Source: an uncultured bacterium (GTDB lineage: Bacteria; Armatimonadota; JACIXR01). Taken from it: a stretch of 64,000 nt of DNA. Each line of letters opens with the position of its first letter. Position 1 is the stretch's first letter. The position numbers and the translations under genes are program-made. The notes beneath the pieces are model-generated. The model worked only from the letters and a program-made list of their open reading frames with translations. It ran no database searches and was not told the DNA's origin. The DNA is taken from contig CALITO010000021.1 in NCBI GenBank assembly GCA_938041455.1, positions 11,909-75,908 on the forward strand. The letters run 5' to 3'. Shown here one piece after another: positions 1,389 through 64,000 of the stretch.

Positions 1389-1464
1389 TGGTGCCGAGGC
1401 CCAGAGTCGAACTGGGGACGCCAGGATTTTCAGTCCTGCGCTCTACCTCCTGAGCTACCTCGGC
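1389..1464 (-). tRNA. tRNA-Phe (GAA), CCA encoded
   Basis: The reverse complement is GCCGAGGTAGCTCAGGAGGTAGAGCGCAGGACTGAAAATCCTGGCGTCCCCAGTTCGACTCTGGGCCTCGGCACCA. The anticodon loop is CTGAAAA, and the 7-bp acceptor stem, D-arm AGCTCAG and T-arm GGTTCGA are present. Confidence 0.9.
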
Positions 1465-1470
1465 ACTTTC

Positions 1471-1548
1471 TGGCGGGGTCGACGGGACTTGAACCCGCGT
1501 CCTCTTGCTTGACAGGCAAGCGCGCTAACCGGACTGCGCCACGACCCC
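1471..1548 (-). tRNA. tRNA-Asp (GTC), CCA encoded
   Basis: The reverse complement is GGGGTCGTGGCGCAGTCCGGTTAGCGCGCTTGCCTGTCAAGCAAGAGGACGCGGGTTCAAGTCCCGTCGACCCCGCCA. The anticodon loop is CTGTCAA. Confidence 0.9.
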
Positions 1549-1560
1549 TATTTTTAAAAA

Positions 1561-1636
1561 TGGTGGGCGAAGTAGGAGTTGAACCTACGACCTTCTCCTT
1601 GTAAGGGAGACGCTCTCCCACCTGAGCTATTCGCCC
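1561..1636 (-). tRNA. tRNA-Val (TAC), CCA encoded
   Basis: The reverse complement is GGGCGAATAGCTCAGGTGGGAGAGCGTCTCCCTTACAAGGAGAAGGTCGTAGGTTCAACTCCTACTTCGCCCACCA. The anticodon loop is CTTACAA. Confidence 0.9.
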
Positions 1637-1641
1637 TTCAA

Positions 1642-1718
1642 TGGTGCCCTCGGGGGGATTTGAACCCCCGCCGCAGGCTTGAAAGGCCTGTATCCTAACC
1701 TGGCTAGATGACGAGGGC
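1642..1718 (-). tRNA. tRNA-Glu (TTC), CCA encoded
   Basis: The reverse complement is GCCCTCGTCATCTAGCCAGGTTAGGATACAGGCCTTTCAAGCCTGCGGCGGGGGTTCAAATCCCCCCGAGGGCACCA. The anticodon loop is CTTTCAA. Confidence 0.85.
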
Positions 1719-1724
1719 ATTAAT

Positions 1725-1802
1725 TGGTGAGCCGTGCAGGAGTCGAACCCGCGACCCCCGGCTTAAAAGGCCGGTGCTCTACCACGGCTGAGCTAACGGC
1801 TC
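1725..1802 (-). tRNA. tRNA-Lys (TTT), CCA encoded
   Basis: The reverse complement is GAGCCGTTAGCTCAGCCGTGGTAGAGCACCGGCCTTTTAAGCCGGGGGTCGCGGGTTCGACTCCTGCACGGCTCACCA. The anticodon loop is CTTTTAA. Confidence 0.9.
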
Positions 1803-3242: not shown

Positions 3243-3245
3243 CTT

Positions 3246-34513: not shown

Positions 34514-36448
34514 CTATGGGGTTCCTGGGTTGTAGGCGAAGCCGTGGAAGCCCAAGAGTGCTTGGAGTATAGCCCAAAACCCATTCCCTATTACCTCGCC
34601 CATAATCAACCCCAAGAAAAAAGGGAGAGCTTTTCTGTAAGCCTTAAGTCCGCCAATCCTCAAGGCAGACACCTTGCACAACCAACCTAAAAAGAAGGAG
34701 AACCAGAGGTAATTCATAGTGAGGGTGTTTGCTGCTGCATAGCCGAGGGGATGGAAAGGCCAGAAGGCAAAGCGGAGGCGCATAAAACCGAGAAAGATAG
34801 TGAAGACCATCCCTATCACTGTATAGCCAAAGCGTTGGGGATCGGGTTGAGAAGAAACATTTAACCAGGAGGCGAGTTCTCGGAAGGCCCAGACCCCGCT
34901 TTCCACGCGCCATCTATCAGCCTTTGCCGAGCCTGCCCCGTTGAGGTAGTAGAGATGGAGGGTAGTGGGCACTGCTACCGCTACACAGGCCATTATGGCC
35001 AGCCACACTCCCAATGTTAAAAGCCAGCCTTTCTTTGCCACAGGGTCGCTGAATTTAACTGCTTCTAACTCGGAGGGCATAATATAGCCCCTGCCGTCTA
35101 CTCCCAAAAACTTCAAAGAGGAAAGGATTGTTAAATTTTTCTCGCCTAAACCTTCTACACCCAAAGCAGAAACAGCGATGTTGCTTGGATGGTCAGGGAC
35201 ATGGATCCAGGTAAGTCCCCCCTCTGCTCTCATCCTCGAAAGGACAAGGGAGAATATAAGGAAGATGAGGATAAAGAATAAGGAATACAGGAGGGAAAGC
35301 CCCACCCTTTTAAGCCAAAATAAAAGGATTAAGAGCGATAGAAGAGCTCCAATCAGGGTGGATTTATATGAGAGTGGTTCGGATGAATCGTCCATTTCCT
35401 TTTTACCCAATGCTTTTAGCAAAATATCCCTCAAATGTCCTCTGGCGGTCCAAATCATTAACCCGAAAAGGGCAAGGAACGCGCCGAGGGATTGTTCCTC
35501 CAGCCCGGGAAAGTGAGCCCAGAACCCACTCTCCCTACCCGCGCCGAAGCCCATAGCGGAGCCGAAAACTAACTCCACTTTACCTAAAAGGTAGAAAAAC
35601 CAGCAACTGAAAGCTACTTCAGCGGAGACAAGATAGGCAAGACCCAAAATAGAAGGATAGAGACTCAGTTCAAGCCATTGCATAGCGTTCCAAGGTGGTT
35701 GGGGGAAGAAACGCATCAAATTGTTATGAAGTAGCACTAAAGGGGGGATAGACGGTCTTATATGATATATTCCATAGGATATTTGGGAGAGTAATGCCAG
35801 ACCCATTCCGGTTAAAGTCAAGGGATGCCTTAGGAAAGAGTTGAAGAAATGTCCTTTTTCCGGCTCCCGGAGCATCTCCAAAGGAACGATTACCAGGGGA
35901 AAGGTAAGTTTTTCCCCTTCCACCCACTGTTTACGAAAAATCACTCCTACACACCAGAAGAAAAAATAAAGGGCTAGGCAGAAGATGAGCCAGTTTGCCA
36001 AGGGAAAAACCCAATGACGCCAGGGTATCCTCCCTCCCCCGTCGAAGAACAATCTAATTGCCTCCTCCTCTTGTAAGTATAGATATTGAGGAAGGTAAGG
36101 GAGGAATTTATTCCAATGTAGTTCTATTTGGGAGAAGTATTTTAAATCCCCAATGCTCGGTATAAGGAATTGGACGAGTCCGAAGGAGGAGAAGGGAGCA
36201 GAGACCATTCCCATCACATAGATTGCTATAAGTTCTCCTGAGGAGAGGGCTTTGTGCGGAAGATATTTCCTAATAACGCTATTGATAATAATGATTAAAA
36301 ATAGGATGAACATTACCCCTATGGGTGGTGGGGGAATAGCATAATCACAAGTCCAGTTGAAGACTTCTACGAAGGGACAAAGATAGCCTACGAGAGCGGA
36401 GAGGAGGACACCTAGGAGGAGGGAACGGAAGGTTAACCGAAACCCCAT
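34514..36448 (-). CDS. Large polytopic integral membrane protein (644 aa, >12 predicted TM helices), function unknown
   Basis: Hydrophobic segments are spaced throughout, and there is no recognisable transporter signature. Confidence 0.5.
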   Translation of the reverse strand: MGFRLTFRSLLLGVLLSALVGYLCPFVEVFNWTCDYAIPPPPIGVMFILFLIIIINSVIRKYLPHKALSSGELIAIYVMGMVSAPFSSFGLVQFLIPSIGDLKYFSQIELHWNKFLPYLPQYLYLQEEEAIRLFFDGGGRIPWRHWVFPLANWLIFCLALYFFFWCVGVIFRKQWVEGEKLTFPLVIVPLEMLREPEKGHFFNSFLRHPLTLTGMGLALLSQISYGIYHIRPSIPPLVLLHNNLMRFFPQPPWNAMQWLELSLYPSILGLAYLVSAEVAFSCWFFYLLGKVELVFGSAMGFGAGRESGFWAHFPGLEEQSLGAFLALFGLMIWTARGHLRDILLKALGKKEMDDSSEPLSYKSTLIGALLSLLILLFWLKRVGLSLLYSLFFILIFLIFSLVLSRMRAEGGLTWIHVPDHPSNIAVSALGVEGLGEKNLTILSSLKFLGVDGRGYIMPSELEAVKFSDPVAKKGWLLTLGVWLAIMACVAVAVPTTLHLYYLNGAGSAKADRWRVESGVWAFRELASWLNVSSQPDPQRFGYTVIGMVFTIFLGFMRLRFAFWPFHPLGYAAANTLTMNYLWFSFFLGWLCKVSALRIGGLKAYRKALPFFLGLIMGEVIGNGFWAILQALLGFHGFAYNPGTP

Positions 36449-44886: not shown

Positions 44887-45939
44887 ATGAAAGAGGAGGA
44901 ACTCAAAAAGTTATCACCTTCTTACTTCCATCTCCGGATGATGGAGAGGGCACCAAAATCCCTTGCTTTTTCTCCAGATGTTGATTTCCCCCGATGGCAG
45001 GGAAAGTTAAGGAGAAAGTTGAAACAACTGTTGGGACCGATTTACAAGGAGGAGGGACCAGTTGAATACGAGGTTTTGGAGGCTGAGGAGAAGCAAGAAT
45101 ATTCCCTCAGGAAAATTGCCTTCTATAACACACCTGATGTTTTGGTCCTCGCTTATCTCTTAGTGCCTAAGGATGGTAGAGAGAAATACCCCGCTATGGT
45201 CTGTCTTCAGGGGCATACACCCGGTGCTCATCTCTCGGTGGGAAGGGTTTACAACAAAGAGGACGAGGAGAATCTCGCTAATGATAGGGATTTTGCCATC
45301 CAGGCGGTAAAAAATGGTTATGTCGCCTTGGCTATGGAGCAGAGGGCTTTTGGAGAGAGGCAGGAAAAATTACAGGAGATGAGAGCCCCTCATACTTGCC
45401 ATGACGCAGTTATGCATGCTCTTATGCTGGGACATACCTTCACTGCGGAGAGGATAGCGGATGTGATGCGAGGAATAGACCTCCTATATCAACTTCCCTT
45501 CGTTGACAAAATGAAGATAGGATGTATGGGAGAATCAGGTGGTGGAACGGTGACCTTCTACGCCTCCTGTATAGAGCCGAGGATAACCCTGTCCGTCGTC
45601 ATCTGCGCCTTTTGCACCTATGAGGACTCTATAATGACAATATATCACTGCGCCGATAATTATATACCTAATGCCCTCCTCTACTTTGGAGAGGAAGATT
45701 TGGCTGGTCTAATAGCTCCAAGACCATTTGTGATTGTGGCGGGTGAGCAGGACCCTATTTTCCCCATCCAGGGGGTGAGGAAAGCTTATGAGAAAGCGAA
45801 GTTGATTTATAAAAAGGTAGGGCATCCCCAGAATATAGAGCTTGTTGTAGGTCCTGGGGGGCACCGTAATTATGCTGACCTCGCCTGGCCAGTGATAAAC
45901 AAGCTTATGCTTATGAAACCGGCGAAGGAAGATCGATGA
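44887..45939 (+). CDS. Alpha/beta-hydrolase-fold esterase (acetyl-esterase / dienelactone-hydrolase-like)
   Basis: 350 aa. The nucleophile elbow is GCMGESGGG (GxSxG), and the C-terminal D/H region is present. Confidence 0.55.
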   Translation: MKEEELKKLSPSYFHLRMMERAPKSLAFSPDVDFPRWQGKLRRKLKQLLGPIYKEEGPVEYEVLEAEEKQEYSLRKIAFYNTPDVLVLAYLLVPKDGREKYPAMVCLQGHTPGAHLSVGRVYNKEDEENLANDRDFAIQAVKNGYVALAMEQRAFGERQEKLQEMRAPHTCHDAVMHALMLGHTFTAERIADVMRGIDLLYQLPFVDKMKIGCMGESGGGTVTFYASCIEPRITLSVVICAFCTYEDSIMTIYHCADNYIPNALLYFGEEDLAGLIAPRPFVIVAGEQDPIFPIQGVRKAYEKAKLIYKKVGHPQNIELVVGPGGHRNYADLAWPVINKLMLMKPAKEDR

Positions 45940-47978
45940 ATATAGGCGAAAAACCTTCCTTACCAAAAGATAAAAATAAGAAAAACTATTTAGCCTCAGT
46001 TTATTTGTTGTTGCTCTTCCTTTTCTCACCTCTCGTCCTACCTCGAGGAGTTGTGCCCGAGAGCGTCCAGCAGAGGGTTAACGCAATCGCTGCCCAAATA
46101 AGACCAGCCCTGGTGAAAATCTACGCTGTCATCCCGGAGTATCAAGGGGGTAGGGAAATAAAGATGGAAGTGGGCGGAAGTGGGACGATCATCCATCCTG
46201 ACGGTTTCGTCCTAACCAATTACCATGTGGCAGGGAGGGCGAGTTATGTTAGATGTATCCTCGCTAATGGTGAGGAAATAGACGCTTACTATTACGCTGG
46301 CGACCCGCTCACCGACCTCGCTATCGTCAAACTAAAGGACCAAAGGAAATTCCCTTATGCTAAATTCGGCGATTCCTCCAAACTAAAAATTGGTGATTGG
46401 GTAATAGCGGCGGGTAGTCCATATGCCCTTTCCCAGTCCCTAACCCTTGGCATAGTGAGCAATACGAAACTTGTTGAGCCGGAGATTTTCTCCCGTTTGG
46501 AAAGGCTGGAAATAGAAGGCGAGAATGTGGGGAGTATGATAACCTGGATTGGACACGATGCCCCCATATACGCTGGAAACTCGGGCGGACCACTTCTCAA
46601 TTTAGATGGGGAAATAGTGGGAGTGAACGAGATGAAAATCGGTTTGGGTGGGGCTATCCCCGGTAACATTGCCAAGAAAGTGGCGGAGGAATTGATAAAG
46701 AACAAAGAAATCCAGAGAAGCTGGTTAGGTATAGAGATACAGCCTTTGCTTGCCACCTCTAAGATGAAAGAGGGGGTCCTTATTTCAAGTGTGATTAAAG
46801 GCTCACCTGCTGAAAAGGCTGGTATCTTGCCGGGGGATATAATCCTCCAAATAGGTGATGAGAAAGTGAAGGTTGAAACGGTAGAGGATATGCCCGAATT
46901 TAATCGGTTGACCTCGGAGCTCCCCCTTGACCGCGATATAAGAGTTCTCCTTTTGCGGGAGGGAAGGAAAAGAACCACATTCATAAGACCGGTTAAGAGG
47001 GAACGCGCCTACTGCGAGATAAGGGAGATAAAAAGATTAGGCATAACTGCAAGAGATATTTCCCCCTACGAGGCGATCGAGTTGAGGAGAGATTCTCAAG
47101 AGGGGGTAGTAATAACTAGCGTGAGAGCGGGTGGACCTGCAGGAGAAGCTAAACCACCCCTCCAGGAGAAGGATGTTATTATGGAGGTGGAGGGGAAAAA
47201 GATAAAGAACATAGAGGAGTTGACCAAATATCTTGAGGAACTAAAAGGGGATGCGTTGGTCAGCCTTCGCTTTGAGAGGAAGAAGGAGAATATGCTCACC
47301 GTTTTGCGACTGGGGGAGGAGAAGGAGGTGGAGGCAATACCTTATGCGAAGAAAGGATGGCTTCCCCTTTCTGTTCAGAGCTTGACCGATGATATAAGAG
47401 AGAAACTCGGCTTGAATAAAAGAGGAGTGATTGTGACAAGGGTCTTCACTAAGGAAGAAACATTTCCCCTCAAAGTGGGAGATATGATTGTAGAGATTGA
47501 GGGGGAGAGTTTGCCGATCCGTTCTCCCGCTGATAAGGCGGTTTTCTTTGAGAAACTTTCAAACTATCGCGTGGGGGATGAGGTTGAACTAACAATCATA
47601 AGAGAGGGAAGGGAGATAAGGGAAAAGGTGAAGCTCTTAGCTGAACCGCCGGGCAGGGAGGAAACGGCGAAGTATAAGGAATCCACTTTGGGGATGACGG
47701 TACGGGATTTATGTTTTGATGATTTAAAAGCGATAGGGGAAGAGAAAGAAGGGGTTATAGTGGAGGCCATAGAAGAAGGTGGTTGGGCTTCCCTGGCGAG
47801 ATTGAATGTGGGGGATTTAATTCTCAAGATAAATGGAAAAAAGGTCAAGAACATCAACGATTTCCAAGAGATAATGAAGCGATTGAAAGGAGAAAAGAAG
47901 GACATAGTTTTCTTCATAGAAAGGGATATGGGGACTCGTTTTATAGAAATTAAAAACTTAGTATGGGAGGTAAAATAA
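45936..47978 (+). CDS. htrA: HtrA/DegP-family periplasmic serine protease with four PDZ domains
   Basis: 680 aa with a signal peptide. The trypsin-fold catalytic residues are TNYHV (His), DLAIV (Asp) and GNSGGPLLNLDGEIVGVN (Ser). Four PDZ-like segments follow it (ISSVIKGSPAEKAGILPGDIIL..., VVITSVRAGGPAGE..., GVIVTRVFTKEET...VGDMIVEIEG, GVIVEAIEEGGWASLARLNVGDLILKING). Confidence 0.85.
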   Translation: MNIGEKPSLPKDKNKKNYLASVYLLLLFLFSPLVLPRGVVPESVQQRVNAIAAQIRPALVKIYAVIPEYQGGREIKMEVGGSGTIIHPDGFVLTNYHVAGRASYVRCILANGEEIDAYYYAGDPLTDLAIVKLKDQRKFPYAKFGDSSKLKIGDWVIAAGSPYALSQSLTLGIVSNTKLVEPEIFSRLERLEIEGENVGSMITWIGHDAPIYAGNSGGPLLNLDGEIVGVNEMKIGLGGAIPGNIAKKVAEELIKNKEIQRSWLGIEIQPLLATSKMKEGVLISSVIKGSPAEKAGILPGDIILQIGDEKVKVETVEDMPEFNRLTSELPLDRDIRVLLLREGRKRTTFIRPVKRERAYCEIREIKRLGITARDISPYEAIELRRDSQEGVVITSVRAGGPAGEAKPPLQEKDVIMEVEGKKIKNIEELTKYLEELKGDALVSLRFERKKENMLTVLRLGEEKEVEAIPYAKKGWLPLSVQSLTDDIREKLGLNKRGVIVTRVFTKEETFPLKVGDMIVEIEGESLPIRSPADKAVFFEKLSNYRVGDEVELTIIREGREIREKVKLLAEPPGREETAKYKESTLGMTVRDLCFDDLKAIGEEKEGVIVEAIEEGGWASLARLNVGDLILKINGKKVKNINDFQEIMKRLKGEKKDIVFFIERDMGTRFIEIKNLVWEVK

Positions 47979-53222: not shown

Positions 53223-53954
53223 CTATCTTTCCGGACCAATGCTTCTGAAGAGATACTCACACAGTTTCAAGTTATCCAGCTTCTCTATTGCGAAGTTGTC
53301 CCAGAAAACAGAAGTTCCAAGGGCAATCAATTCTCCTTTACCTATGCTTCTACTCGCTCCCAGAATTATATTACTACCAGCGATATCGCTAAGGGCGCTT
53401 TCCTCTCCCAGAATCAAAACCTCTACTTCTTCTCCAATTTCAAGGGAAGCGCTACAGGGGAAGAATATTTGGGAAACGCCCTTCAAGCCGGGGGAGAACT
53501 TGGATGTCGTTATCAAAAGGGGGTCATTATCCATACAGTGGAGAGGGTCTATCACCTCGTCATCCCTGAATTTTATCCCCCATTCCTCTGTTAGTGTATT
53601 ACAGATACCCGCGACTCTATCGGAACAGCGATAATAAGCGGTTACTATGACCCTTCCACCTGCTTCCATAAACCTCTTTATGTCCGCTTTTTCCCGAGGG
53701 GAAAAGGGTTCTTCTGGATAGCAGAGAACCAAGATATCGAAAGCGGAAAGGAACTTAAATGCTAACTGTTCCTCTCTTTCCTCAAAATTTATTCCCCATT
53801 CTTTCAAATAAGTTGCGAGTTTGGAGAAATAGTAATGGTCGGATAAGCTGAATTCCCTATGGCGAACATCCCAAAGCAATTTTCTCACTACTCTACTACA
53901 CCCCCTCTTCCCATCTATGTGGTAAGAGGTGGGTTGTATACATTCTATAGGCAT
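53223..53954 (-). CDS. Hypothetical protein (243 aa), possibly class I glutamine amidotransferase-like/ThuA-like fold
   Basis: It is an ORF with no strong motif. The start is uncertain, and a GTG at ~53891 would remove the 59-nt overlap with dgt. Confidence 0.3.
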   Translation of the reverse strand: MPIECIQPTSYHIDGKRGCSRVVRKLLWDVRHREFSLSDHYYFSKLATYLKEWGINFEEREEQLAFKFLSAFDILVLCYPEEPFSPREKADIKRFMEAGGRVIVTAYYRCSDRVAGICNTLTEEWGIKFRDDEVIDPLHCMDNDPLLITTSKFSPGLKGVSQIFFPCSASLEIGEEVEVLILGEESALSDIAGSNIILGASRSIGKGELIALGTSVFWDNFAIEKLDNLKLCEYLFRSIGPER

Positions 53955-54948
53955 AATGGTCAGTCATACCGGCGATGAAATCGCAGACCGCTCTTGCCAT
54001 ACCTTCTCTTGTCCCCATAGTGAGGAGGAACTCGGGAAGGAGTTGGGGGTTTTCCATATAGAATTCGAAAAGCTCATTAAGGAGCCTCTTTGCCTTAGCC
54101 AGTTCGTTGAGTATCAGAGGGTGGCTATAGACCCTTTGATAAAGGAAATCCTTCATCTCCTCCATAGCGGAAAGGACATCCTCAGAGAGGGAAATGAGGG
54201 GTTTACCTTCGCTTTCTCTAATAATATCCTGCACCATTTTCCCTATTCTCTCCGAGTGGGTTCTCCCCAACACCCCCTGCCACCGGGTAGGGATGTCCCC
54301 TTCTTTTAGCAATCCCGCTCTAATAGCGTCGTCTATATCATGATTTATGTAAGCTATGCGGTCCGCTACCATCACTACCTGTGCCTCAAGCGTTGCTTTT
54401 CCCTTCTCTCGCAGGGCATCCTTTAAATTCTCCATTCCCTTACTATGGTAGAGAATACCCTCCCTAACCTCGTAAGTGAGGTTCAATCCTTCTCCATTGT
54501 TCTCCAGGAAATCCACTACTCTCAGTCCCTGTTCATCGTGATGGAAATGTGCAGGAGGGGTGTATTTTCCCAAAATTTCATCTAAGGCATCCTCGCCAGC
54601 GTGCCCGAAGGGAGTATGTCCGATGTCGTGAGCTAAAGAGATAGCTTCTATTAAATCCTCGTTAAGCCGCAATGCTCTCCCTATCGTGCGGGCTATTTGG
54701 GATACCTCAAGGGTATGGGTGAGGCGGGTGCGATAATGGTCGCCTTCGGGAGCAATAAAGACCTGCGTTTTATGCTTTAATCTCCGAAAAGCCTTGCTGT
54801 GAATTATCCTATCCCTATCCCTCTGGAAATCCGTCCTTATAGCGCATTTTTCCTCCTCTCTCCGCCTTCCTCTGCTATTACAAGATAAAGTTGCGAAGGG
54901 AGATAAAAGTTCTTTTTCCTTTTGCTCCACATATTCACGAGGAAGCAT
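53896..54948 (-). CDS. dgt: dGTP triphosphohydrolase-like HD-domain protein (Dgt family)
   Basis: 350 aa. RTRLTHTLEVSQIARTIGRAL...LAHDIGHTPFGHAGE is the HD-domain signature of dNTP triphosphohydrolases. Confidence 0.8.
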   Translation of the reverse strand: MLPREYVEQKEKELLSPFATLSCNSRGRRREEEKCAIRTDFQRDRDRIIHSKAFRRLKHKTQVFIAPEGDHYRTRLTHTLEVSQIARTIGRALRLNEDLIEAISLAHDIGHTPFGHAGEDALDEILGKYTPPAHFHHDEQGLRVVDFLENNGEGLNLTYEVREGILYHSKGMENLKDALREKGKATLEAQVVMVADRIAYINHDIDDAIRAGLLKEGDIPTRWQGVLGRTHSERIGKMVQDIIRESEGKPLISLSEDVLSAMEEMKDFLYQRVYSHPLILNELAKAKRLLNELFEFYMENPQLLPEFLLTMGTREGMARAVCDFIAGMTDHYAYRMYTTHLLPHRWEEGV

Positions 54949-57022
54949 CGTTTCTCTGCCTTTCTATGACTATCTGGGACAAATCCCCGAATAAGAAGAA
55001 AAGGTTCCAGATGAAGTTAACAAGTGCGAGCCTATTTGCTCGTAACTCCTTCTCCTCGGTCATAACCAAAACCTTATCAAAGAATCTGTTTATCAAATCC
55101 TTCAGGGAAGAAAGTTCTCTAAAAATTGCCTTGTAATCCTCCTTCCTCCTCAGTATCTCCAATGTTCTCGCAACCCTTTTTCCTTCCTCGTAAAGCCCTT
55201 TTTCTTCCTCTAAAAGGAGAAGATCTTCCTTTATTCCTTCCTCGGGAGGATTTTCCCCTCTTCTCTGAGCAAAACGGATTATGTTTATCAATCTGACGGA
55301 GGCAGTCACTGTGGGAATAAATTCCTCGTCCTCCCTCAGTTCGTTAAGGGCGATAGCCCGAGCGAAAAGCTCCCTTATGTTCTCCATTTTCCCCTCCAAA
55401 ACCGCATTCACTATATCATATCTTATTCCCATCTCCCTTAAAGCGAGTTCCAGCCTGTTTCTGAGAAATTCCAAAAGTTTCTCCATCCCCCCGAGCTCCA
55501 CGCCCATTTCCTCCTTATAGGCTTTTCCCACTGCTTGTATTATTTCCCTCAGATTGAACCTTTCCTCTTCCCGCAGTATCTCTATTACCGTTTGGCCGGC
55601 TCTTCGCAGGGCGAAGGGATCGGAGGAGCCGGTGGGTTGTAAGTGCAAGTGAAAAGCACCGGCAAGGGTGTCAATTTTATCAACCAGACTTATGAGTTTA
55701 CCGAGGGGCGTTTTTATTCCTTCCTCTGAGAGTGTGTATTGATAGGATTCATATATTGCTCGTGCTATCTCTTCGTCCTCACCTTGGAGGAGGGCGTAGT
55801 TCATTCCTACTATTCCCTCTAAGTCAGGAAATTCCCTTACCATATGAGTTGTCAAGTCCGCCCTACAAAGCAGGGCGGTCCGAAGAGCTCTTTCTCTTAT
55901 CTCTTCTATTGGTAGGGAAGAGATGATATTTCTCATTCTTCTAACTTTATCAGCTATAGTTCCCAAACCCCCGAGGAATATTATGCCGGAGAGCGCGGTT
56001 GCTCTCTCTTTTAGAGGAATCTTTAAATCCTCCTCAAAGAAAAAATGTGCATCAGCGAGGCGAGCTTTCAAGACTTGCTCATAACCTTCCACTACATTTT
56101 CCAGTCCCTTACCATCTCCATCCCTTACGCCAACGAAATAGGGTAAGAGTTCACCGCGCTTATTATGGATGGGAAAAAGATTTAACTGGCTCTCCATAGA
56201 TGTGGCAATTATCTCTCTGGGGAGAACAAGGAAGCGCTCGTCCATTTTGCCCAAGAAAAGGTGGGGTTTCTCGTTAAGGAAAACGATTTTCTCCAAAAAT
56301 CGCTCGTGAATTGTTATCTCTCCTTCAACGCTTTCCGCTAACTCCTTTGCTTTATCAAGGATAATCTTCCTTCTCTCCTCTTGGTCAAGGATTATACCCT
56401 CTACCTTTACCCTTTGAAGATAATCGTCCACACTTTCAGGGGAGAACACACCTTCGAGGTATCTTTCGGTGTAGGAAATCCTATTTGAGGCTATTTCTCC
56501 GATCTTCAATTCCAATAGTTTATCGTCCATCAGGGAAAGAATCCAACGAATGGGACGGATGAAGCGGGAGGAGGAAGCATCCCAGCGCATAGATTTGGGG
56601 AGATAAACCGAGTTAAGAAGGGAGGGGATTGTTTCTTTGAGAATTTCTTCCGTAGGGCGTCCACTTTCCTTCTTCACAGCGTATACATATTTACCTTGTT
56701 TATCTTCCTTTATGATGAGTTCATCCAGGCTAATGCCTTGGGCTTTGGCGAAGCCATGGGCAGCTGAGGTGGGATTTCCCTCCTCGTCGAAAGCCTTTTG
56801 GTAAGGGGGTCCCTTTATTTCCACAATCCTTTCCTTCTGCTGGGGTGCGATATCGTCTATTAGTAGGACAAGTCGGCGGGGTGTCCCATAGACAAAGAGA
56901 TTGGAAAAGGAGATATCCTTCTCATAAAGGAGTTTCTCCATTCTCTCCTTCAACTGTTGGATAGCGGAAGGAAGGAAATTAGGAGGAAGTTCCTCACAGC
57001 CTATTTCCAAGAGAAACTTCAT
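54935..57022 (-). CDS. glyS: Glycine--tRNA ligase beta subunit
   Basis: 695 aa. The N-terminus MKFLLEIGCEELPP is a GlyS hallmark, and the gene follows glyQ directly. Confidence 0.9.
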   Translation of the reverse strand: MKFLLEIGCEELPPNFLPSAIQQLKERMEKLLYEKDISFSNLFVYGTPRRLVLLIDDIAPQQKERIVEIKGPPYQKAFDEEGNPTSAAHGFAKAQGISLDELIIKEDKQGKYVYAVKKESGRPTEEILKETIPSLLNSVYLPKSMRWDASSSRFIRPIRWILSLMDDKLLELKIGEIASNRISYTERYLEGVFSPESVDDYLQRVKVEGIILDQEERRKIILDKAKELAESVEGEITIHERFLEKIVFLNEKPHLFLGKMDERFLVLPREIIATSMESQLNLFPIHNKRGELLPYFVGVRDGDGKGLENVVEGYEQVLKARLADAHFFFEEDLKIPLKERATALSGIIFLGGLGTIADKVRRMRNIISSLPIEEIRERALRTALLCRADLTTHMVREFPDLEGIVGMNYALLQGEDEEIARAIYESYQYTLSEEGIKTPLGKLISLVDKIDTLAGAFHLHLQPTGSSDPFALRRAGQTVIEILREEERFNLREIIQAVGKAYKEEMGVELGGMEKLLEFLRNRLELALREMGIRYDIVNAVLEGKMENIRELFARAIALNELREDEEFIPTVTASVRLINIIRFAQRRGENPPEEGIKEDLLLLEEEKGLYEEGKRVARTLEILRRKEDYKAIFRELSSLKDLINRFFDKVLVMTEEKELRANRLALVNFIWNLFFLFGDLSQIVIERQRNDASS

Positions 57023-57871
57023 CTAAACCTTCGCCTCCTGCTGAATGTAAAGCTGGGCGCAGCGGTTTGCGATTCCCCGCACTCTGTCTATTAACCCTGC
57101 CCTCTCTACAACGCTCAGCGCTCCCCTGGCGTCAAGGATGTTGAAGATATGAGAGCATTTCAGCGCTAAATCATAACTGGGGAAGATAAGCCCTTTATCC
57201 AGCAATAGATGGGCTTCCTTTTCAAAGGAAGTAAAGAGGGAGACAAGGGAGGATATATTCGCAAGCTCAAAGTTGTATCGGCAATGTTCTATCTCCATAG
57301 GTTTGTGGAGCTCACCGTAGCTCGTTCCATTCCCCCATTCTATATCCAGAATAGAATCCCTTTTCTGGAGATACATAGCGAGTCTTTCCGGACCATAGGT
57401 TATTTCCGCAGAGATGGTGGAGAGCTCTATTCCCCCCATTTGTTGGAAGTAAGTGAACTGGGTTATCTCCAAGCCGTCCAGCCAGACCTCCCAGCCTACA
57501 CCGGATGCGCCCAAGGTAGGGGATTCCCAATCGTCCTCAATGAAGCGAACCTCGTGTTCTTTGAGGGGTATGCCGAGAAACTCCAGACTCCTCAGGTAGA
57601 TGTTCTGGATATTATGAGGGGCAGGCTTGATTATCACTTGATATTGATAGTATCTTTGAAGGCGATTGGGATTCTGGGCATAGCGTCCATCTTGGGGTCT
57701 GCGGGAGGGCTGGACATAGGCTACTCGCCAGGGATTGTCTCCCAAGGCACCAAAGAAGGTGGCAGGGTGCATAGTTCCTGCCCCTACCTCAACATCGTAA
57801 GGTTGGAGGATGAGACACCCCTGGTTAATCCAAAATTCGTCTAACTTTCGTAGAAGTGTTTGAAAATCCAT
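57023..57871 (-). CDS. glyQ: Glycine--tRNA ligase alpha subunit
   Basis: 282 aa. [39 protein letters not shown] is highly conserved in GlyQ. Confidence 0.92.
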
Positions 57872-57993: not shown

Positions 57994-59016
57994 ATGGCAA
58001 GAAGAATCAGCTGTGAGCAAATTTCTCCTCTTCTCTCCGCTTATCTTGATGGTGAGCTTTCCAAGGCGGAGAGGCAGAGCGTGGAGTGGCACCTCAGGGA
58101 GTGCGAGGCGTGCCGAGGCGAGTTAAGGGAGCTTGAAAAGGCCAAAAAATTCGCCCTCCAACTCGGCGAGATCCAGCCTCCCATCTCCCTCAGGCAGAAG
58201 ATTATGGCAAGGGTTGAGAAGGAGAAGGAGTGCGAGACCGTTCGCCCCTTGCTCGGAGCTTATCTGGATGAGGAAATTGTCGAGGCGGAACGGAAGCATA
58301 TAGAGCTTCATCTGATCAGGTGTGCCGATTGCAGGAAGGAGTTGGAAGCGACGAAGAAGGTGAGAGAAATCCTCCGAACCCTTCCCGAGGTGGAGCTTCC
58401 CTCCTACTCAAGGGCAAGAATCTACGCCTCCATACAAAGAAGACCCGTCTTTGTGAGGAGGTTCGCCCTTGGTTTTGCCACCTTGGCGGCTGCCGCTTCC
58501 CTGGTTTTCTTCGCTCTACCCCTCCACCGCCCCACCCCTCCCCCTCATGTGCCCATCATCGCCCAGCAAAGCGCCCCTTCTACTATCTCCCAAACCGAGC
58601 CCTTGCTCCCTAAGGGTGCCAAGTCTTCCACAAAAGCGGTCGTTCCAGGCTACCGAAAGCCTACTCTGGCGGTCATCCCTTCGGTAGCTTCCCCGCGGGA
58701 AGAGCAACCCATAACAATTACCCCACCTGTAAAGGAGGAGGAAGAAAAACTCGTTATAGGTGAGACCCGCCCCGTTGTCCTACCCCAGCCTAGCGAGATG
58801 CCATCTGCATCTGAGGCAAAGGAGGAACCACAAGAGGTAGCTCCTATGCCCCCCACTTCTCCTACACCCGTAAAGGTAGCTGTAAAGCTGGAACCTTCCC
58901 TCTCCGATGTCCTAAAGGAGATAACAACCTCCGTGGATAAACCATCTATTCCTTCAAAGCTTACCGAGCGACTGGATAAAAGCATAGTGATAGGGGTAGT
59001 AAGGGTAGAGTTTTAA
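57994..59016 (+). CDS. Membrane-spanning anti-sigma factor with two tandem zf-HC2 (HxxxCxxC) domains and a Pro/Glu-rich extracytoplasmic C-terminal region
   Basis: The first zf-HC2 reads SCEQISPLLSAYLDGELSKAERQSVEWHLRECEACRGE and the second reads CETVRPLLGAYLDEEIVEAERKHIELHLIRCADCRKE. A TM helix (FALGFATLAAAASLVFFALPL) and a Pro-rich tail follow. Confidence 0.65.
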   Translation: MARRISCEQISPLLSAYLDGELSKAERQSVEWHLRECEACRGELRELEKAKKFALQLGEIQPPISLRQKIMARVEKEKECETVRPLLGAYLDEEIVEAERKHIELHLIRCADCRKELEATKKVREILRTLPEVELPSYSRARIYASIQRRPVFVRRFALGFATLAAAASLVFFALPLHRPTPPPHVPIIAQQSAPSTISQTEPLLPKGAKSSTKAVVPGYRKPTLAVIPSVASPREEQPITITPPVKEEEEKLVIGETRPVVLPQPSEMPSASEAKEEPQEVAPMPPTSPTPVKVAVKLEPSLSDVLKEITTSVDKPSIPSKLTERLDKSIVIGVVRVEF

Positions 59017-59037
59017 ACATCTCTCAGACCCCCGGAG

Positions 59038-62000
59038 GTGAGAGTCCCGATGAAGCGTATCTTTATTTTAGGTTTCATTGTTTTGCTTACCTCTTATGTG
59101 TTTTCTCTCGAGGAGGCGTCAAGCGATGACTTTTCCTTGGGCAATGCCCTGGCAATCACCAGCAACGCCATTTCCTCCAGTGCCTCCCTACCATCTGTCC
59201 AGGGTGCAGTCCTCCATACTGATACTCTAAGGGTGGTCAAGGGCGGTATCCTGGCTCTATCCCATAGGGGGATAGTCCAAGGAAGTGAGAAGGTGATAGC
59301 AAATGGACGCTTTCTCAAGCGGGATGTTGACTACCTCATAGATTATGCTAATGGGACGCTCATCCTCTCTGGGGAAGTGAAAGCCACTACACTCATCATC
59401 TCTTATCTATACGACCCTAATAACCAGAATCAGCCCGCAGGCGGGTTACCACTTCAATTAGCTCTGACCGGGGGCAATTCCACCATTCTAAACCTCCTTA
59501 CATATTTCCGCCCCGGCTCCCTTGGGCAAAATGGGGAAGAAAGTTGGTTAGTCGGTAGCCATTTCACCTCCAAACTGGGCTCTAATACCACTTTAAAGAG
59601 CCTCCTCTTTCTCAGTAGAACTACCGCTCCAAAGAGTTATGTAGTGGGTTTGGCGAGGAGTAACGCTGTTCCTACTACCGAGCAAAAAGGGAAAGCTATG
59701 GTGCATTGGATGGATATGAATTTGGGTAAAGGCAAGCTAAGTCTCTTATTCCAGAACATAGATAAAGATTTCTCCGTGCCTCAGGAGATACCCAACAATC
59801 TGAATGGTAACGATATATCCTTCCTCAAGCAGGAGGCCGGTACAAAGAAGATAGGAGTTGGTTATCAGGGTTCCAATCTCAGTCTTTCCTTCGCTCGGCA
59901 AACCGTTGACCCCCAAACGAGAGGAGACCAAGGGGTAGCAAGGGAAAAGGGGTTAACCAAGCAGATATTCGCTGGTGAATACAAGTTGTCCGATACCCTT
60001 TCCTTTTCTGCTCTATTGAAATCCGCTACCGATGGAAAGGGAGAAGGCTTTCTCAAGCGGATAGAATTAAGGGGCAGGGATGAGGAGTTCCTTCGCTTCA
60101 CTCACCAGCATATTTCCCCCAACTTCGTTAGGGGAGGGAGTTTGAACGAACCCGAGGCGGGCATATGGGCGAAAGAGGTAGGAGTAAGCAGAGAGATTAT
60201 CGAGCTTTCCAAGAGGCTTCTTCCCAACCTTTCCCTGAATCTTTCCCAGACGAAGATAAGGGATGAGAAGGGCGGGATAGAGCGGCTGAATTGGAATTTG
60301 CAAGGTGCGAACTTTTCTATAGCTGTTAGAAATCAGGAGGTCGGCAGGGATTTTGCTCGCTTCGGCAATCTAACTGAGGGTGATGCTGGTCAGCTTGCCA
60401 AGGAGAGAGGGTTGGTGAGGCGGACCATAGAAGGTGCTTTAAACCTCTCTCCCAAATTGCAAACCTCCTTTTCCCTCGCCAGTATAAATGATGGCAAAGA
60501 AGGCTGGCGAGGACATAATCCGCAATTGAAGGGCGATATCTGGGATATTTCCTTCTCCAAAAGTCACTTCAGCGAGGGCTTCAGAAGATTTGGTGATTTG
60601 ACCGACCCCGAGAAGCAAAGGTTCGCCAACGAGTGGGATATAAGCAAGTCCTTGCTCAAGGGCAACTTTAAACTCGATAATTTACTGCCCGGGCTCACTC
60701 TTTCCCTCGTCTCTCGCAAGTTGGGAGATTCTAAGGGTGGGCTTGAAGGCAAAAGTGTGGAGCTCAAACTGAAGGACCAACCCATTTTCCGCTTCTCCAC
60801 CCAGAGGATAGACCCCGCGTTCACGAGATTTGGAGACCTTGGAGAAGAAGATAAGGATCGCCTCGCTCAAGAGAGGGCTGCTGAGAAAAAAGACATCTTT
60901 CTTGCACTACCCATTTCCCAAAACCTCGCTTTTTCCACCTCCATAACTAAAGTGGATAGTTTGGATACCACGAGAAGTGATGCGAGTTGGGGTAAGTCCA
61001 CCCTCCACACCATAAACAACTTATCCTGGACAGGCAAGGACAGCATAAAAGCCTTCCTCACCTGGGACGCTACCAGGCAGGAAGGCGATGTGAGGAGAAC
61101 GAACGATATCTACAACCTGATAGTTGAGAAATCCTTCAGTAACGCTAATCTCAAGGTTCAACAAATGCAAGGAATTAGAACAGAGGGAGATAAGCAATTC
61201 CGCTCCATCCTCACAGTTTTGAACCTCCAGCAGACGCTGAAGGGGAATGCTTCTTACAGTATTAACTTAAAGCACAACAAGCTTGAGAACGGCAATACTA
61301 TAGAAGAGGGCAATCTTAATTTACAAGCTCCTTTGCTTAAAGGAAACGCCGGGACCATCGGCTTTTCCTTTAAGGAAAGTGCAGAGCATAGCTTCAAGAG
61401 CATTTCCCTTGTTCAACCTCTGGATTCCCAATCCCAATTCAAGGGAGAGGTTGCGAGGATACGCCAGGGCAACCAAGAGGGTAAAAAGGAAGAACTCTCC
61501 TTAACGAGGACATTCCTTCCCGGGCTCACCAGCAACCTCGCCTATGGTATTCAATCACTTGGTAGTCACTCCTCTTCTTATCGCCTTCTCCAAACCACTT
61601 ATCAACCCCAGGGCGCTCCCTACAAAATAAGTTATATGATTAAGGATAGGAGTGGAGGGAATAACACTACAACTAGGGCGATAGATATTACCTACCCCTT
61701 TGAGGGTAAAAATTTCACCCTCTCTATGTTGAAGAACCCCGAGGACCAAAATGGCAATCCACTTCATACCAAGAGGGTAGCTATTAATTTCCAAGGTTCT
61801 CCCGTATTATCCGGTCAGTATATTCTGGATACCAATTATATGAATGGGAAATTGAACAAACAATATTCCCTCCAATTCACCCCTTCCCAAAAGTTTAACC
61901 TCAAGCTTTCCCTTGTTGACAATGTGCCCGACCCAAATCAGAAGCTCCTGAGGAAACTCAACTGGGAAATTGCCTTCCCTCTGAACGAAAAGCTTTCTTT

Positions 62001-62286
62001 CAAAGGAACTCACAACTACCATTTCGTTGAAAGGGAGAAGAAGGGCGTTTACAAGACGCTTTTCACCCTTTCGGGCAAGCTCTCTACTTTTGAGGTGCTT
62101 GATGCCTCCGTCGGCTTAGATTACTCCTCCCTAGCGGGGGACAAGGTAGGAGGTATAACCTATAGATTTTCCTACTCCCGTAACATCAGTGCTGATAACT
62201 CCCTTGGGTTGTCTGGCTATTACACGGATAACTTCAAGGGGAAGGACAATGTTGGTGTAAGGTTAGATCTTACCCACGCATTTTAA
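59038..62286 (+). CDS. Large secreted cysteine-free protein (1082 aa) with five ~75-80-aa tandem repeats and a C-terminal beta-signal-like end (...RLDLTHAF), a putative outer-membrane beta-barrel or surface protein
   Basis: It has a signal peptide (MKRIFILGFIVLLTSYVFS). The repeats carry the core F-x-R-x-x-(I/V)-D-P-x-F-x-RFG(D/N)L...A-x-E-(R/K)-G-L...L-S-x-x-L...S-L...DGK(E)G. The terminal aromatic residue is typical of BAM substrates. Confidence 0.5.
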   Translation: MRVPMKRIFILGFIVLLTSYVFSLEEASSDDFSLGNALAITSNAISSSASLPSVQGAVLHTDTLRVVKGGILALSHRGIVQGSEKVIANGRFLKRDVDYLIDYANGTLILSGEVKATTLIISYLYDPNNQNQPAGGLPLQLALTGGNSTILNLLTYFRPGSLGQNGEESWLVGSHFTSKLGSNTTLKSLLFLSRTTAPKSYVVGLARSNAVPTTEQKGKAMVHWMDMNLGKGKLSLLFQNIDKDFSVPQEIPNNLNGNDISFLKQEAGTKKIGVGYQGSNLSLSFARQTVDPQTRGDQGVAREKGLTKQIFAGEYKLSDTLSFSALLKSATDGKGEGFLKRIELRGRDEEFLRFTHQHISPNFVRGGSLNEPEAGIWAKEVGVSREIIELSKRLLPNLSLNLSQTKIRDEKGGIERLNWNLQGANFSIAVRNQEVGRDFARFGNLTEGDAGQLAKERGLVRRTIEGALNLSPKLQTSFSLASINDGKEGWRGHNPQLKGDIWDISFSKSHFSEGFRRFGDLTDPEKQRFANEWDISKSLLKGNFKLDNLLPGLTLSLVSRKLGDSKGGLEGKSVELKLKDQPIFRFSTQRIDPAFTRFGDLGEEDKDRLAQERAAEKKDIFLALPISQNLAFSTSITKVDSLDTTRSDASWGKSTLHTINNLSWTGKDSIKAFLTWDATRQEGDVRRTNDIYNLIVEKSFSNANLKVQQMQGIRTEGDKQFRSILTVLNLQQTLKGNASYSINLKHNKLENGNTIEEGNLNLQAPLLKGNAGTIGFSFKESAEHSFKSISLVQPLDSQSQFKGEVARIRQGNQEGKKEELSLTRTFLPGLTSNLAYGIQSLGSHSSSYRLLQTTYQPQGAPYKISYMIKDRSGGNNTTTRAIDITYPFEGKNFTLSMLKNPEDQNGNPLHTKRVAINFQGSPVLSGQYILDTNYMNGKLNKQYSLQFTPSQKFNLKLSLVDNVPDPNQKLLRKLNWEIAFPLNEKLSFKGTHNYHFVEREKKGVYKTLFTLSGKLSTFEVLDASVGLDYSSLAGDKVGGITYRFSYSRNISADNSLGLSGYYTDNFKGKDNVGVRLDLTHAF

Positions 62287-62329: not shown

Positions 62330-64000
62330 TCACCTCAAAGTAAACAGCCTTATAGCCTGCACCGTTTCTCCCTCGGAAAATGCCCTTACTCTCACGATGT
62401 AAACCCCCGCTGGTAAGACATTCCCTCTCTCATCCCTTCCATCCCAATAGATGCAGTTTGTTCCCGCTTCTCTATTGCTTCTCATCACCCTTATCGTTCG
62501 CCCGTCTATGCTTTCTACTCTCACTTCTGCTTCTGCGTTCCTTGACAAGGTGAAGGCGAATTCCATCCCACCCCGAGTGGGCTTGACAAGAAGTTCCGAG
62601 ATAAGCAAGGGGTTTTTCTTGGACATCACTATGGAGAAAAGGCGAGGTGTGCCATCTCCTACGAATTTATAATACGAGGAGTGGAGGAGAGAAACTTTCT
62701 TTCTATTGGAGAGGTCGGTCAAGGTGAGGGAGTAACCACGAGGGAACGAAGAAAGGTCTTTCCAGCGCAAGACACATTCTCCTTCCAAGGAAATTTGAAG
62801 GAGCCATTCCGCAGAAGGAGAAATCCGCTTTATGTCCCAAGCGAGATGGACATCACGGGATGCATCAAGGAAGGAAGCACTGGGGGCCCTATTTATAGGG
62901 GGTGGAAACTCCAAGTTGAAGGAGGGTAGGGGGTTTTCCCCTTGCCCCAGGACGAGTGTCCTCGTTTTACCCGAGTTTTCAACCTCTATCTTAACTTGCC
63001 ATCCAATGGAAGGGGAAATAGCGTCCCTCCTCACCCTTTTGCTCCCCTTATTATGCTCGGGTCCAGGAATGATTAAAGAACATTCTTTATAGCATCTTAT
63101 CCAATAACCCTCCCACGGCAAGAGGGTATCAAGTGTGGGGTCAAGAGGCTCGTATTCTCCTGTCTGGGGGTTGAAACGCCAGAGGGTTTTTGCTAAGTAG
63201 CCTTGTTTGTTCGCTTCCGCAAGGCTTATGGGCTCAACTGAGCCGGGAATCCTCACAAGTATATCTGCCAAAGCACATCCCTTCTCATAGTTAAAGGGGT
63301 ATCCTATCTGATTCCAACCCACAGAGAGTCCCATGGTGAACTCTCCATCCAGCGGTTCAGCATAACCCTCTATTTGAACCTCCCTATCTTCAAGGAAGCG
63401 GATAAAATAACCTCTTCCTAAGGAGAGCGATAAATTTGGATAGAAGAGATATTTATTTGTTCCCTCTTTTGTAGGTTCCCAGCGAGCGAGCGCTAATTTA
63501 TCGGGTTCAATCCCTAAAGCACTGGCAGGGTCGTGAGAAACGGGGTCAAGGGGAGGGCTTATCATATATATACCTTTGGAGAAGCTCTTGCTTGCCACCT
63601 GCTTTTCCCGAGGGGGTTGGATGATTATAGCATAGGGACCATAAAAGCAATTGATTTTTCTTTCCAGCCTTTCTCCCCCTGGAGAGATGTATTCCACATC
63701 TATCTGTTGGGGTCCGGTTGATAAAGAGGGGAAAGGTGTTCCGAAAGCCCCCTGGGTTATGGGGATCTCCTGCCCATTTATAAGAAGCGTGCCACCTAAA
63801 CCGGTTTGTAAAGTTCCATAAACATTGTTGGGTTCCGCCTCTGTTCCCACTACTCCATAAGGGAAGAGAATGGAAACATCCAGACCCCCAATGGGAAACT
63901 CTATCGTAACCCTTTGAGGACCTCCTATGTTGAAGAATGTGGGGGCGACATAGCCGATACCATCAGTTATAGTAACGGTCTCATATTGTGGTTCAACGGG
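62330..64000 (-). CDS. Secreted protein with a C-terminal T9SS type-A sorting domain (Por_Secre_tail / FlgD-Ig-like). The N-terminus runs off the right window edge.
   Basis: The C-terminal ~75 aa (EVRVESIDGRTIRVMRSNREAGTNCIYWDGRDERGNVLPAGVYIVRVRAFSEGETVQAIRLFTLR) match the T9SS CTD pattern (xGxYFYRLxAxxFxxTKKMVLLK-like). The reading frame stays open upstream of the GTG at 63850 as far as position 64000. Confidence 0.6.
   Translation of the reverse strand, partial: PVEPQYETVTITDGIGYVAPTFFNIGGPQRVTIEFPIGGLDVSILFPYGVVGTEAEPNNVYGTLQTGLGGTLLINGQEIPITQGAFGTPFPSLSTGPQQIDVEYISPGGERLERKINCFYGPYAIIIQPPREKQVASKSFSKGIYMISPPLDPVSHDPASALGIEPDKLALARWEPTKEGTNKYLFYPNLSLSLGRGYFIRFLEDREVQIEGYAEPLDGEFTMGLSVGWNQIGYPFNYEKGCALADILVRIPGSVEPISLAEANKQGYLAKTLWRFNPQTGEYEPLDPTLDTLLPWEGYWIRCYKECSLIIPGPEHNKGSKRVRRDAISPSIGWQVKIEVENSGKTRTLVLGQGENPLPSFNLEFPPPINRAPSASFLDASRDVHLAWDIKRISPSAEWLLQISLEGECVLRWKDLSSFPRGYSLTLTDLSNRKKVSLLHSSYYKFVGDGTPRLFSIVMSKKNPLLISELLVKPTRGGMEFAFTLSRNAEAEVRVESIDGRTIRVMRSNREAGTNCIYWDGRDERGNVLPAGVYIVRVRAFSEGETVQAIRLFTLR

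Follow-up and report, generated by a model that had tools for sequence, protein, structure and literature searches.

The Locus and Its Features

In the genome of an uncultured bacterium, a stretch of 64,000 nucleotides (positions 11,909 to 75,908 of contig CALITO010000021.1, assembly GCA_938041455.1; the whole stretch is called the window here) contains two adjacent genes on the forward strand that are the subject of this report. The upstream gene encodes a membrane-anchored anti-sigma-type protein (the partner), and the downstream gene a very large protein with a predicted outer membrane (OM) location (the big protein). Little is understood of the envelopes of Armatimonadota and other diderm Terrabacteria, and the big protein is predicted to be among the largest OM beta-sheet proteins known. 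An earlier, sequence-only reading of the window had singled out the downstream gene as encoding a cysteine-free repeat protein with a C-terminus like that of outer membrane proteins (OMPs), next to an anti-sigma gene. The observation is confirmed with corrections and its interpretation is partly supported; what is new is the architecture of an OM beta-sheet family and its conserved partnership. The features of the two genes are listed below, with the basis of each assignment in brackets.

57994..59016, forward strand: partner gene, encoding a 340-residue membrane-anchored zf-HC2 anti-sigma-type protein (Pfam, NCBIfam)
58012..58116, forward strand: first zf-HC2 motif, residues 7-41, HxxxCxxC at H33 (Pfam)
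58228..58440, forward strand: second anti-sigma domain, RsrA-like, residues 79-149, HxxxCxxC at H106 (TIGR03988)
58462..58518, forward strand: single transmembrane helix, residues 157-175, FALGFATLAAAASLVFFAL, with an RR..RR cluster before it (best 19-residue window, mean Kyte-Doolittle hydropathy 2.2)
58519..58878, forward strand: Pro/Ala/Ser/Thr-rich periplasmic arm, residues 176-295 (composition)
58879..59013, forward strand: conserved C-terminal helix and terminal beta-strand ending ...LDKSIVIGVVRVEF, similar to an OMP beta-signal (comparison of partner C-termini)
59034..59038, forward strand: ribosome-binding site GGAGG (11 nt 5' of the ATG at 59050)
59050..62286, forward strand: gene for the big protein, a large OM beta-sheet protein of 1078 residues from the ATG at 59050 (OM location predicted)
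59050..59106, forward strand: Sec-type signal peptide MKRIFILGFIVLLTSYVFS (read from the sequence; signal-peptide-like N-termini throughout the family)
59227..59625, forward strand: N-terminal small beta domain, GSEKVIANGRFLKRDVDYLIDYANGTL..., with the first strands, sharing homology with an SprA module (TIGR04189 local match, hhalign)
59737..60966, forward strand: six tandem repeats of ~76 residues, each with four beta-strands and one helix-bearing loop (hidden Markov model, predicted secondary structure)
60997..62277, forward strand: C-terminal meander of ~27 long strands (~430 residues) with turns of 2-5 residues on both sides (DSSP on AlphaFold2 models)
62248..62283, forward strand: terminal strand and beta-signal ending ...NVGVRLDLTHAF (C-terminal aromatic residue conserved in the family)

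The Big Protein

The open reading frame (ORF) of the big gene, 59038-62286 on the forward strand, is real as described earlier, but the length of 1082 residues then given to its product depends on reading it from the GTG at 59038. The GGAGG sequence overlaps this GTG and is spaced 11 nt from the ATG at 59050, and an identical protein in the database has 1078 residues. For these reasons, the ATG at 59050 is most likely the real start, and residues are numbered accordingly unless stated otherwise.

The features that suggested an OM protein have held up. The N-terminus reads as a signal peptide, and similar N-termini are found across the family. The protein has no Cys, while 41 other ORFs of the window contain 1.09% Cys; at that rate, finding none in 1078 residues would have a chance probability of 7.6e-6. 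The sequence ends in ...GVRLDLTHAF, and Phe is the last residue in 111 of the 137 full-length family members (a typical end is ...RLDYQLRF), with an aromatic residue within the last three positions in 130 of them. Taken with an all-beta structural model (see below), the signal peptide and the conserved terminal aromatic strand make the big protein look like an OMP of the type inserted by the machinery for beta-barrel assembly (BAM).

The tandem repeats are also real, although there are six of them and not five. A hidden Markov model (HMM) built from one unit of close orthologues matches the others with E-values between 4.5e-7 and 2e-13, and the iterated HMM finds units at residues 230-290, 296-341, 348-424, 426-501, 501-575, and 581-639. 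Six repeats is also the commonest count among family members (100 of 137). The conserved loop of the repeats has the motif F-x-R-F-G-D-L-x-E-x-D-x-x-Q-L-A-K-E-x-G-L-x-R. There is no tandem repeat in the DNA, which rules out a recent duplication at the DNA level and indicates that the repeats arose by ancient duplication. A profile search with one unit, which had been proposed as a way of defining the repeat family and its range, thus succeeds within the protein but not outside: with the profile of a repeat unit, the word-index search had no match at E<=1e-3, and the repeat could not be followed beyond the big-protein family.

Predicted Fold

Two AlphaFold2 models were obtained, from multiple sequence alignments of 15 sequences (model 1, mean pLDDT 75, pTM 0.47) and 66 sequences (model 2, mean pLDDT 82, pTM 0.54). 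Both show a disordered linker (residues ~20-50), a small beta domain (residues 54-121), and then an unbroken antiparallel meander of 52-53 strands, 9-17 residues each, that reaches the last residue. Each repeat contributes four strands, and short helices are present almost exclusively in one loop of 17-27 residues per repeat. The predicted fold is thus all-beta, rather than the all-alpha or soluble fold that would have spoken against an OM protein, and no clear match to a known OMP family was found with Pfam, NCBIfam, or Foldseek.

The C-terminus of BAM substrates is periplasmic. When strands are counted back from this end, the helix-bearing loops fall on the outer side of the membrane. Among 66 diverse members, conservation is 2.28 bits in the N-domain and 2.1-2.7 bits in the repeat loops, compared to 1.7 bits in the strands. 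The N-domain and the loops are the most conserved regions of the protein, the reverse of what is seen in ordinary porins, and this pattern is more in keeping with surfaces of interaction than with variable loops exposed at the surface. It suggests that the conserved loops may be tucked into the lumen, serve as a cap, or provide a binding site for a conserved partner.

In comparisons to the PDB with Foldseek, the matches at E<=1e-3 are OM barrels, namely those of SprA, LptD, TonB-dependent receptors, and SlpA, and the beta-belt of apolipoprotein B; just above that threshold come the usher PapC and the VDAC barrel of mitochondria. The top match of the better model is SprA (E 4e-8). The TM-scores are all low, 0.10-0.27 when normalized to the query and at most 0.38 when normalized to the target. 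The scores to SprA are 0.17 and 0.10, and the target-normalized scores are 0.14-0.26 for TonB-dependent receptors and 0.16-0.32 for LptD. Such values indicate that the model does not contain a barrel of the known 19-26-strand type and that the curvature of its sheet is different, probably much lower. The predicted curvature fits one giant barrel, but it also fits an open belt. A closed transmembrane barrel, like the exact number of its strands, is a tentative reading of the models. As late as March 2026, the 36-strand SprA was said to be the largest barrel known (bioRxiv 10.64898/2026.03.07.710327).

Relation to SprA and Other Outer Membrane Proteins

The sequence-only reading could not assign the protein to SprA, LptD, BamA, TonB-dependent receptors, or PorU. 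For SprA, membership indeed fails but a relationship had been missed: a module of ~130 residues is homologous, and SprA is the top fold match. SprA/Sov is the translocon of the secretion system called type IX (T9SS), and the match of the big protein to its model, TIGR04189, covers a single stretch of 34 residues (E 1.5e-5), scoring 22.4 bits against a cut-off of 200. When an alignment of 40 family sequences is compared to 12 SprA homologues by hhalign, 133 columns align with a probability of 97.5% (E 6e-12). They correspond to residues 64-196 of the big protein (in the 1082-residue numbering) and ~589-730 of SprA; nothing else aligns, and the repeat HMM does not match SprA. The homology is therefore limited to an N-terminal module, and the protein is not a member of the SprA/Sov family. 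The shared module comprises TIGR04189 model positions ~576-640 and flanking strands, and its motif is GSE-V-x-x-(D/N)-G-x-x-L-x-R-(D/N)-V-D-Y-x-I-D-Y-x-x-G, followed by further strands.

In a scan of GTDB with one genome per species, the N-domain motif is also found in many proteins of 1800-2400 residues from Gemmatimonadales, FCPU426, Fibrobacteraceae, Cloacimonadota, and others. Two of these long motif-bearing proteins were tested, and both proved homologous to SprA, with TIGR04189 scores of 202 and 522 bits. The module also occurs in tandem: at least four copies of the SprA-like N-domain are present in a Saganbacteria protein of 1326 residues (L033 5476-9474), and two in a Cloacimonadales protein of 1097 residues (L081 5842-9138). 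These copies within large secreted proteins indicate that the N-domain behaves as a mobile module. Its presence in both the big protein and SprA is relevant to how the T9SS pore arose.

The other assignments fail outright, since no Pfam or NCBIfam model of a TonB-dependent receptor, LptD, BamA, or PorU matches. A receptor of the FecA type can be rejected from the lack of a plug (PF07715), a PF00593 barrel, and an STN domain (PF07660) at Pfam E<=1. The OstA_N jelly-roll and barrel models of LptD are unmatched, as are the POTRA and Bac_surface_Ag models of BamA/Omp85 (Pfam and NCBIfam in both cases). OmpM/SlpA was rejected as well, there being no SLH domain by Pfam and no match to a PDB chain by sequence. 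More generally, sequence searches of PDB chains give no meaningful match to the big protein, and no Pfam or NCBIfam family matches it, the local SprA match being the sole NCBIfam exception. Eight diverse family members similarly have no significant Pfam or NCBIfam match (one NCBIfam match is below threshold, at E 0.014).

Family Size, Distribution, and a Short Form

The big-protein family is widespread and previously unannotated. When 1.84 billion representatives of clusters at 50% identity are searched exhaustively with an HMM, 1,111 of them match at E<=1e-3 and, with the threshold set at E<=1e-30, 190. The size of the family is visible only in this kind of search: the word-index search with the single protein finds 15 relatives, and a 66-sequence profile adds almost none. 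The members are nearly all 1000-1400 residues long with a signal-peptide-like start, and their median number of Cys is 1. A literature search found no paper describing the family.

In the GTDB scan, full-length relatives are present in unclassified hot-spring "bacterium" metagenome-assembled genomes (MAGs) at 68-72% identity, and in Armatimonadota and Fimbriimonadales MAGs at 23-27%. The scan used a single N-domain motif, and the taxonomic range is therefore a lower bound. It recovered one locus of the big protein per genome.

Two uncultured bacteria have a short form of ~780 residues (L022 5833-8172 and L030 5809-8151). The family HMM aligns to both of them in the N-domain, including its first strands, and in the C-terminal meander, but they lack the repeat array; neither has a zf-HC2 gene upstream. 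Because they have both ends of the protein without the array, the array (~24 strands) appears to be an insert by which an older protein grew larger and which co-occurs with the partner, a lead drawn from two cases. The short and long forms would then be a natural example of barrel enlargement via the insertion of hairpin repeats.

The Partner

The transmembrane anti-sigma gene noted upstream of the big gene is borne out by a zf-HC2 match (PF13490, E 1.7e-21, two copies) and by a single transmembrane helix. The second domain aligns at residues 79-149 to positions 1-72 of the 77 in the RsrA-type model TIGR03988, with 63.3 bits against a cut-off of 62.5. The orientation in the membrane was read from the sequence by the positive-inside rule. 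On this reading the periplasmic part is 165 residues long, 46% of which are Pro, Ala, Ser, or Thr, and it ends in ...LSDVLKEITTSVDKPSIPSKLTERLDKSIVIGVVRVEF. A FecR-type anti-sigma protein was rejected, as no FecR domain (PF04773) is found at E<=1.

This architecture is kept in all 21 partners compared (defined in the next section). Each has one transmembrane helix, a low-complexity periplasmic arm of 165-245 residues rich in Pro, Ala, Ser, and Thr, and a conserved C-terminal amphipathic helix and beta-strand. The zf-HC2 domain is Pfam-positive in 20 of the 21. The last residue is Phe in 17, preceded by Arg, Lys, or Glu in 16, as in ...VRVEF, ...IKIRF, ...LRSRF, and ...ITIRF; another Phe ending is ...SMYF. 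The Fimbriimonadales partners end in ...VTVDLK or ...SIRFK. The terminal strand of the partner thus resembles the beta-signal of the big protein itself.

Conservation of the Gene Pair

Co-conservation with the anti-sigma gene had been set as a test of the sequence-only reading, and the outcome is clear. The partner is directly 5' of the big gene, on the same strand, in 21 of 21 loci, at 17-100% identity. These are the loci of the long, repeat-bearing form for which the upstream region is available: close relatives (55-78%), Armatimonadota and Fimbriimonadales MAGs (17-27%), and the subfamilies P0015, P0024, P0029, and P0060. The intergenic gaps range from -11 to +62 nt, apart from one of 244 nt, and in four loci the two genes overlap at their stop and start codons (gaps of -1 and -11 nt). 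In the window, the genes are 33 nt apart counting from the ATG at 59050, with no terminator between them. The other flanking genes all differ between distant loci. The strict pairing and the conserved architecture of the partner argue for functional coupling of the two proteins. We also count in support of coupling that the short forms without the repeat array are without the partner. The two genes probably form a previously undescribed link between the OM and gene regulation.

A gene for an extracytoplasmic function (ECF) sigma factor is found near the pair only in two Armatimonadota loci (L019 3231-4564 and L020 3422-4548, reverse strand), where a divergent upstream ECF sigma gene, clear in L020, is accompanied by a gene for a 160-residue zf-HC2 anti-sigma protein. 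These are the only nearby sigma candidates in any locus. Fimbriimonas ginsengisoli has ~30 rpoE-type genes (PMC4072686), indicating that ECF sigma factors are abundant in Armatimonadota, and the cognate sigma gene may be located elsewhere in the genome.

A Candidate Trans-Envelope Module

The explanation we favor, with a probability of about 40%, is that the pair is a trans-envelope signaling or tether module with a logic like that of FecA/FecR, in the absence of homology to either protein. The two co-transcribed genes would encode a module that is typical of diderms of the Armatimonadota type. After export via Sec, the big protein would enter the OM through BAM and form a beta-sheet of very large size with almost no loops, most likely a giant barrel of ~52-54 strands preceded by the small periplasmic domain shared with SprA. 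The six helix-bearing loops, one per four-strand repeat, would be on the outer side or folded into the lumen. The partner would reside in the inner membrane with its one or two zinc-finger anti-sigma domains in the cytoplasm, and its Pro-rich arm of 165-245 residues would cross the periplasm, ending in the short helix and the Phe-final strand. This strand would pair onto the N-domain of the big protein or onto an edge of the barrel. The state of the OM protein (assembled, occupied, or damaged) could then determine how stable the anti-sigma protein is, and thereby whether an ECF sigma factor, whose gene would be at another place in the genome, is released. The specific proposal that the terminal strand docks on the big protein by beta-augmentation, so that the pair couples OM state to an ECF sigma factor, is held just as tentatively. 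If the docking is true, it would represent a new way of coupling the state of the OM to transcription, with parts unrelated to FecA/FecR or RseA.

The signaling is proposed by analogy. In FecA/FecR also, the gene of an OM barrel (a predicted one in our case) is coupled to that of a single-pass anti-sigma-type protein of the inner membrane, and the periplasmic part of the partner, like that of FecR, could reach the OM. However, unlike FecA, the big protein has no plug, TonB_dep_Rec barrel, STN domain, or TonB box. The partner carries zf-HC2 and not FecR, there is no sigma gene in the operon, and the anti-sigma gene precedes the OM gene. RseA also ties an anti-sigma factor to the state of OMPs, the PDZ domain of DegS sensing the OMP C-terminal motif Y-x-F, and the present case likewise involves an aromatic C-terminal motif. 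The logic proposed here could thus be that of FecA/FecR surface signaling, or of RseA responding to OMP C-termini, built from unrelated parts. Unlike RseA, the anti-sigma protein itself has the OMP-like C-terminus and is tied genetically to one giant OM protein, and there is no homology to RseA or RseB. The partner is organized like TonB and TamB, which are anchored in the inner membrane, span the periplasm, and pair by strands onto OM barrels: it too has an N-terminal anchor, a Pro-rich spacer, and a C-terminal strand. TamB also ends in a beta-signal-like motif. In contrast to these proteins, the partner has no TonB_C or DUF490 domain, has no ExbBD nearby, and has a cytoplasmic anti-sigma domain.

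Several observations weigh against the signaling module as drawn. The pTM of the better AlphaFold2 model is only 0.54. In an analysis of hydrophobic faces, the outward-facing hydrophobicity of the strands is weak, with weak alternation. Covariation (mutual information with average product correction, 133 sequences) is enriched between adjacent strands and gives no signal of the first strand closing onto the last, in a test of low power. The partners of L005 (6833-7963) and L088 (789-1958) lack the HxxxCxxC zinc ligands, the former having no zf-HC2 match and the latter a weak one, although neither has lost the transmembrane helix, the long arm in the periplasm, or the final strand ending in ...F; the classical chemistry of zinc-binding anti-sigma factors is therefore not universal in the family. 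Most loci have no sigma-factor gene adjoining the pair, and a tblastn search of the 64-kb window with one ECF sigma query gave no match at E<=1.

Alternative Explanations

The big protein could instead be a secretion translocon, a slimmed distant relative of SprA whose barrel conducts folded proteins while the partner gates, plugs, or regulates it. SprA (PDB 6H3I and 8GL8) is likewise a very large single-chain OM beta-sheet, which that of the big protein equals or exceeds, and the ~130-residue module and the best Foldseek E-value of the better model both point to it. Moreover, the convergent gene at 62330-63850 encodes a secreted-type protein whose FlgD_ig end is weakly similar to the C-terminal domains (CTDs) of T9SS substrates. 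However, the homology is confined to ~130 of 1078 residues, TIGR04189 gives 22 bits against 200, and the TM-scores to SprA are no higher than 0.17. The big protein is about half the length of SprA or less, without the SprA_N domain or the cap inserts; SprA for its part lacks the six helix-loop repeats and has 36 strands, compared to ~53 predicted ones in the big protein. SprA belongs to the Fibrobacteres-Chlorobi-Bacteroidetes (FCB) group, whereas the big protein is from Armatimonadota-type Terrabacteria, and no T9SS genes (PorV, PorK/L/M/N, or CTD substrates) are adjacent in any of the loci covered, the single CTD-like gene being that of this window. We consider a translocon unlikely. A structural role is similarly doubtful: the big protein might be an abundant OM scaffold or pore and the partner a tether from the inner to the outer membrane, with a zinc finger that is incidental or regulates only the turnover of the partner itself. 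The Pro-rich arm is long enough to cross the periplasm, two lineages lose the zinc ligands yet keep the arm and the C-terminal strand, and there is one locus per genome (in the motif-restricted scan), located beside the housekeeping genes glyQS in close relatives. There is also a precedent, since diderm Terrabacteria use the large barrels OmpM/SlpA as envelope tethers (bioRxiv 10.1101/2021.05.31.446380). OmpM/SlpA, which combine SLH with a 30-strand barrel, are of similar size (~1100 residues), and SlpA is among the fold matches. Unlike them, the big protein has no SLH domain, coiled-coil stalk, or sequence similarity, and Pfam finds no peptidoglycan-binding domain. The anti-sigma domain, kept in 20 of 21 partners and often duplicated, is hard to explain for a pure tether.

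A further alternative concerns the fold and not the role, and is compatible with the other explanations. The protein could be an open, extended amphipathic beta-sheet that rests on a membrane or connects membranes in the manner of a belt or taco, with the handling of lipids as one possible role and the C-terminal strands as its only anchor. The ApoB100 beta-belt is among the best Foldseek matches and gives model 1 its top query-normalized TM-score (0.27); the C-terminal half has tight turns on both sides of the sheet. The weak hydrophobic alternation and the lack of a closure signal (at low power) can be read in the same way, as can target TM-scores of 0.2-0.37 to barrels of 22-26 strands, which imply a curvature unlike that of known barrels. 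However, a barrel of 50 or more strands would also have low curvature, most of the fold matches are true barrels, and the aromatic beta-signal, the signal peptide, and the near absence of Cys are hallmarks of BAM substrates, leaving the open sheet quite improbable. That the adjacency of the anti-sigma gene is a coincidence, the big protein working alone, is essentially refuted. The lack of a nearby sigma gene and the two short-form relatives without the partner could be cited for it, but the pair is kept in every long-form locus despite wholly different flanks, with start and stop codons overlapping in four.

The favored trans-envelope module can also be put in a bolder form, which we regard as improbable as a whole. 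The big protein would be the largest single-chain OM barrel (~52-54 strands, compared to 36 in SprA), grown from an ancestor of ~780 residues by the addition of six four-strand repeats, and would bind the beta-signal-like C-terminus of the anti-sigma protein or even take it up as an extra strand. The two together would be a new trans-envelope signaling or secretion device of Armatimonadota-type diderm Terrabacteria.

Other Genes in the Window

The pair is flanked upstream by divergent genes on the reverse strand (53896-57871), glyQ, glyS, and an HD-domain dGTPase-like gene, with glyQ as the immediate neighbor. Relatives at 55% identity or more (L001-L003) keep this order, and L008 keeps glyQ-glyS; the order is not found in the Armatimonadota loci. 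Downstream, the convergent gene at 62330-63850 (reverse strand) encodes 506 residues, of which the last ~90 match FlgD_ig (PF13860, E 6e-9). The end of this protein also weakly matches T9SS CTDs (the PorU C-terminus at E 1e-4 and TIGR04183 at E 0.04). The domain is present in a single copy in the window and is not kept beside the pair elsewhere.

About 10 kb upstream of the pair, a gene at 45936-47978 (forward strand) encodes an HtrA/DegP-type serine protease of 680 residues with approximately three PDZ domains. This protease might recognize aromatic tails exposed at C-termini; in other loci it is unlinked to the pair. A DUF6785/DUF6784 protein of 644 residues (E 8e-132) is encoded at 34514-36448 (reverse strand), and one is also found ~3 kb downstream of the pair in relatives at 55% identity (L002 13970-15895 and L003 14427-16352). 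Near the start of the window are a tmRNA gene (983-1331, forward strand), five tRNA genes (1392-1802, reverse strand), and two adjoining radical-SAM/SPASM genes (1854-4721, reverse strand) that encode 462 and 491 residues and are typical of peptide-maturase loci.

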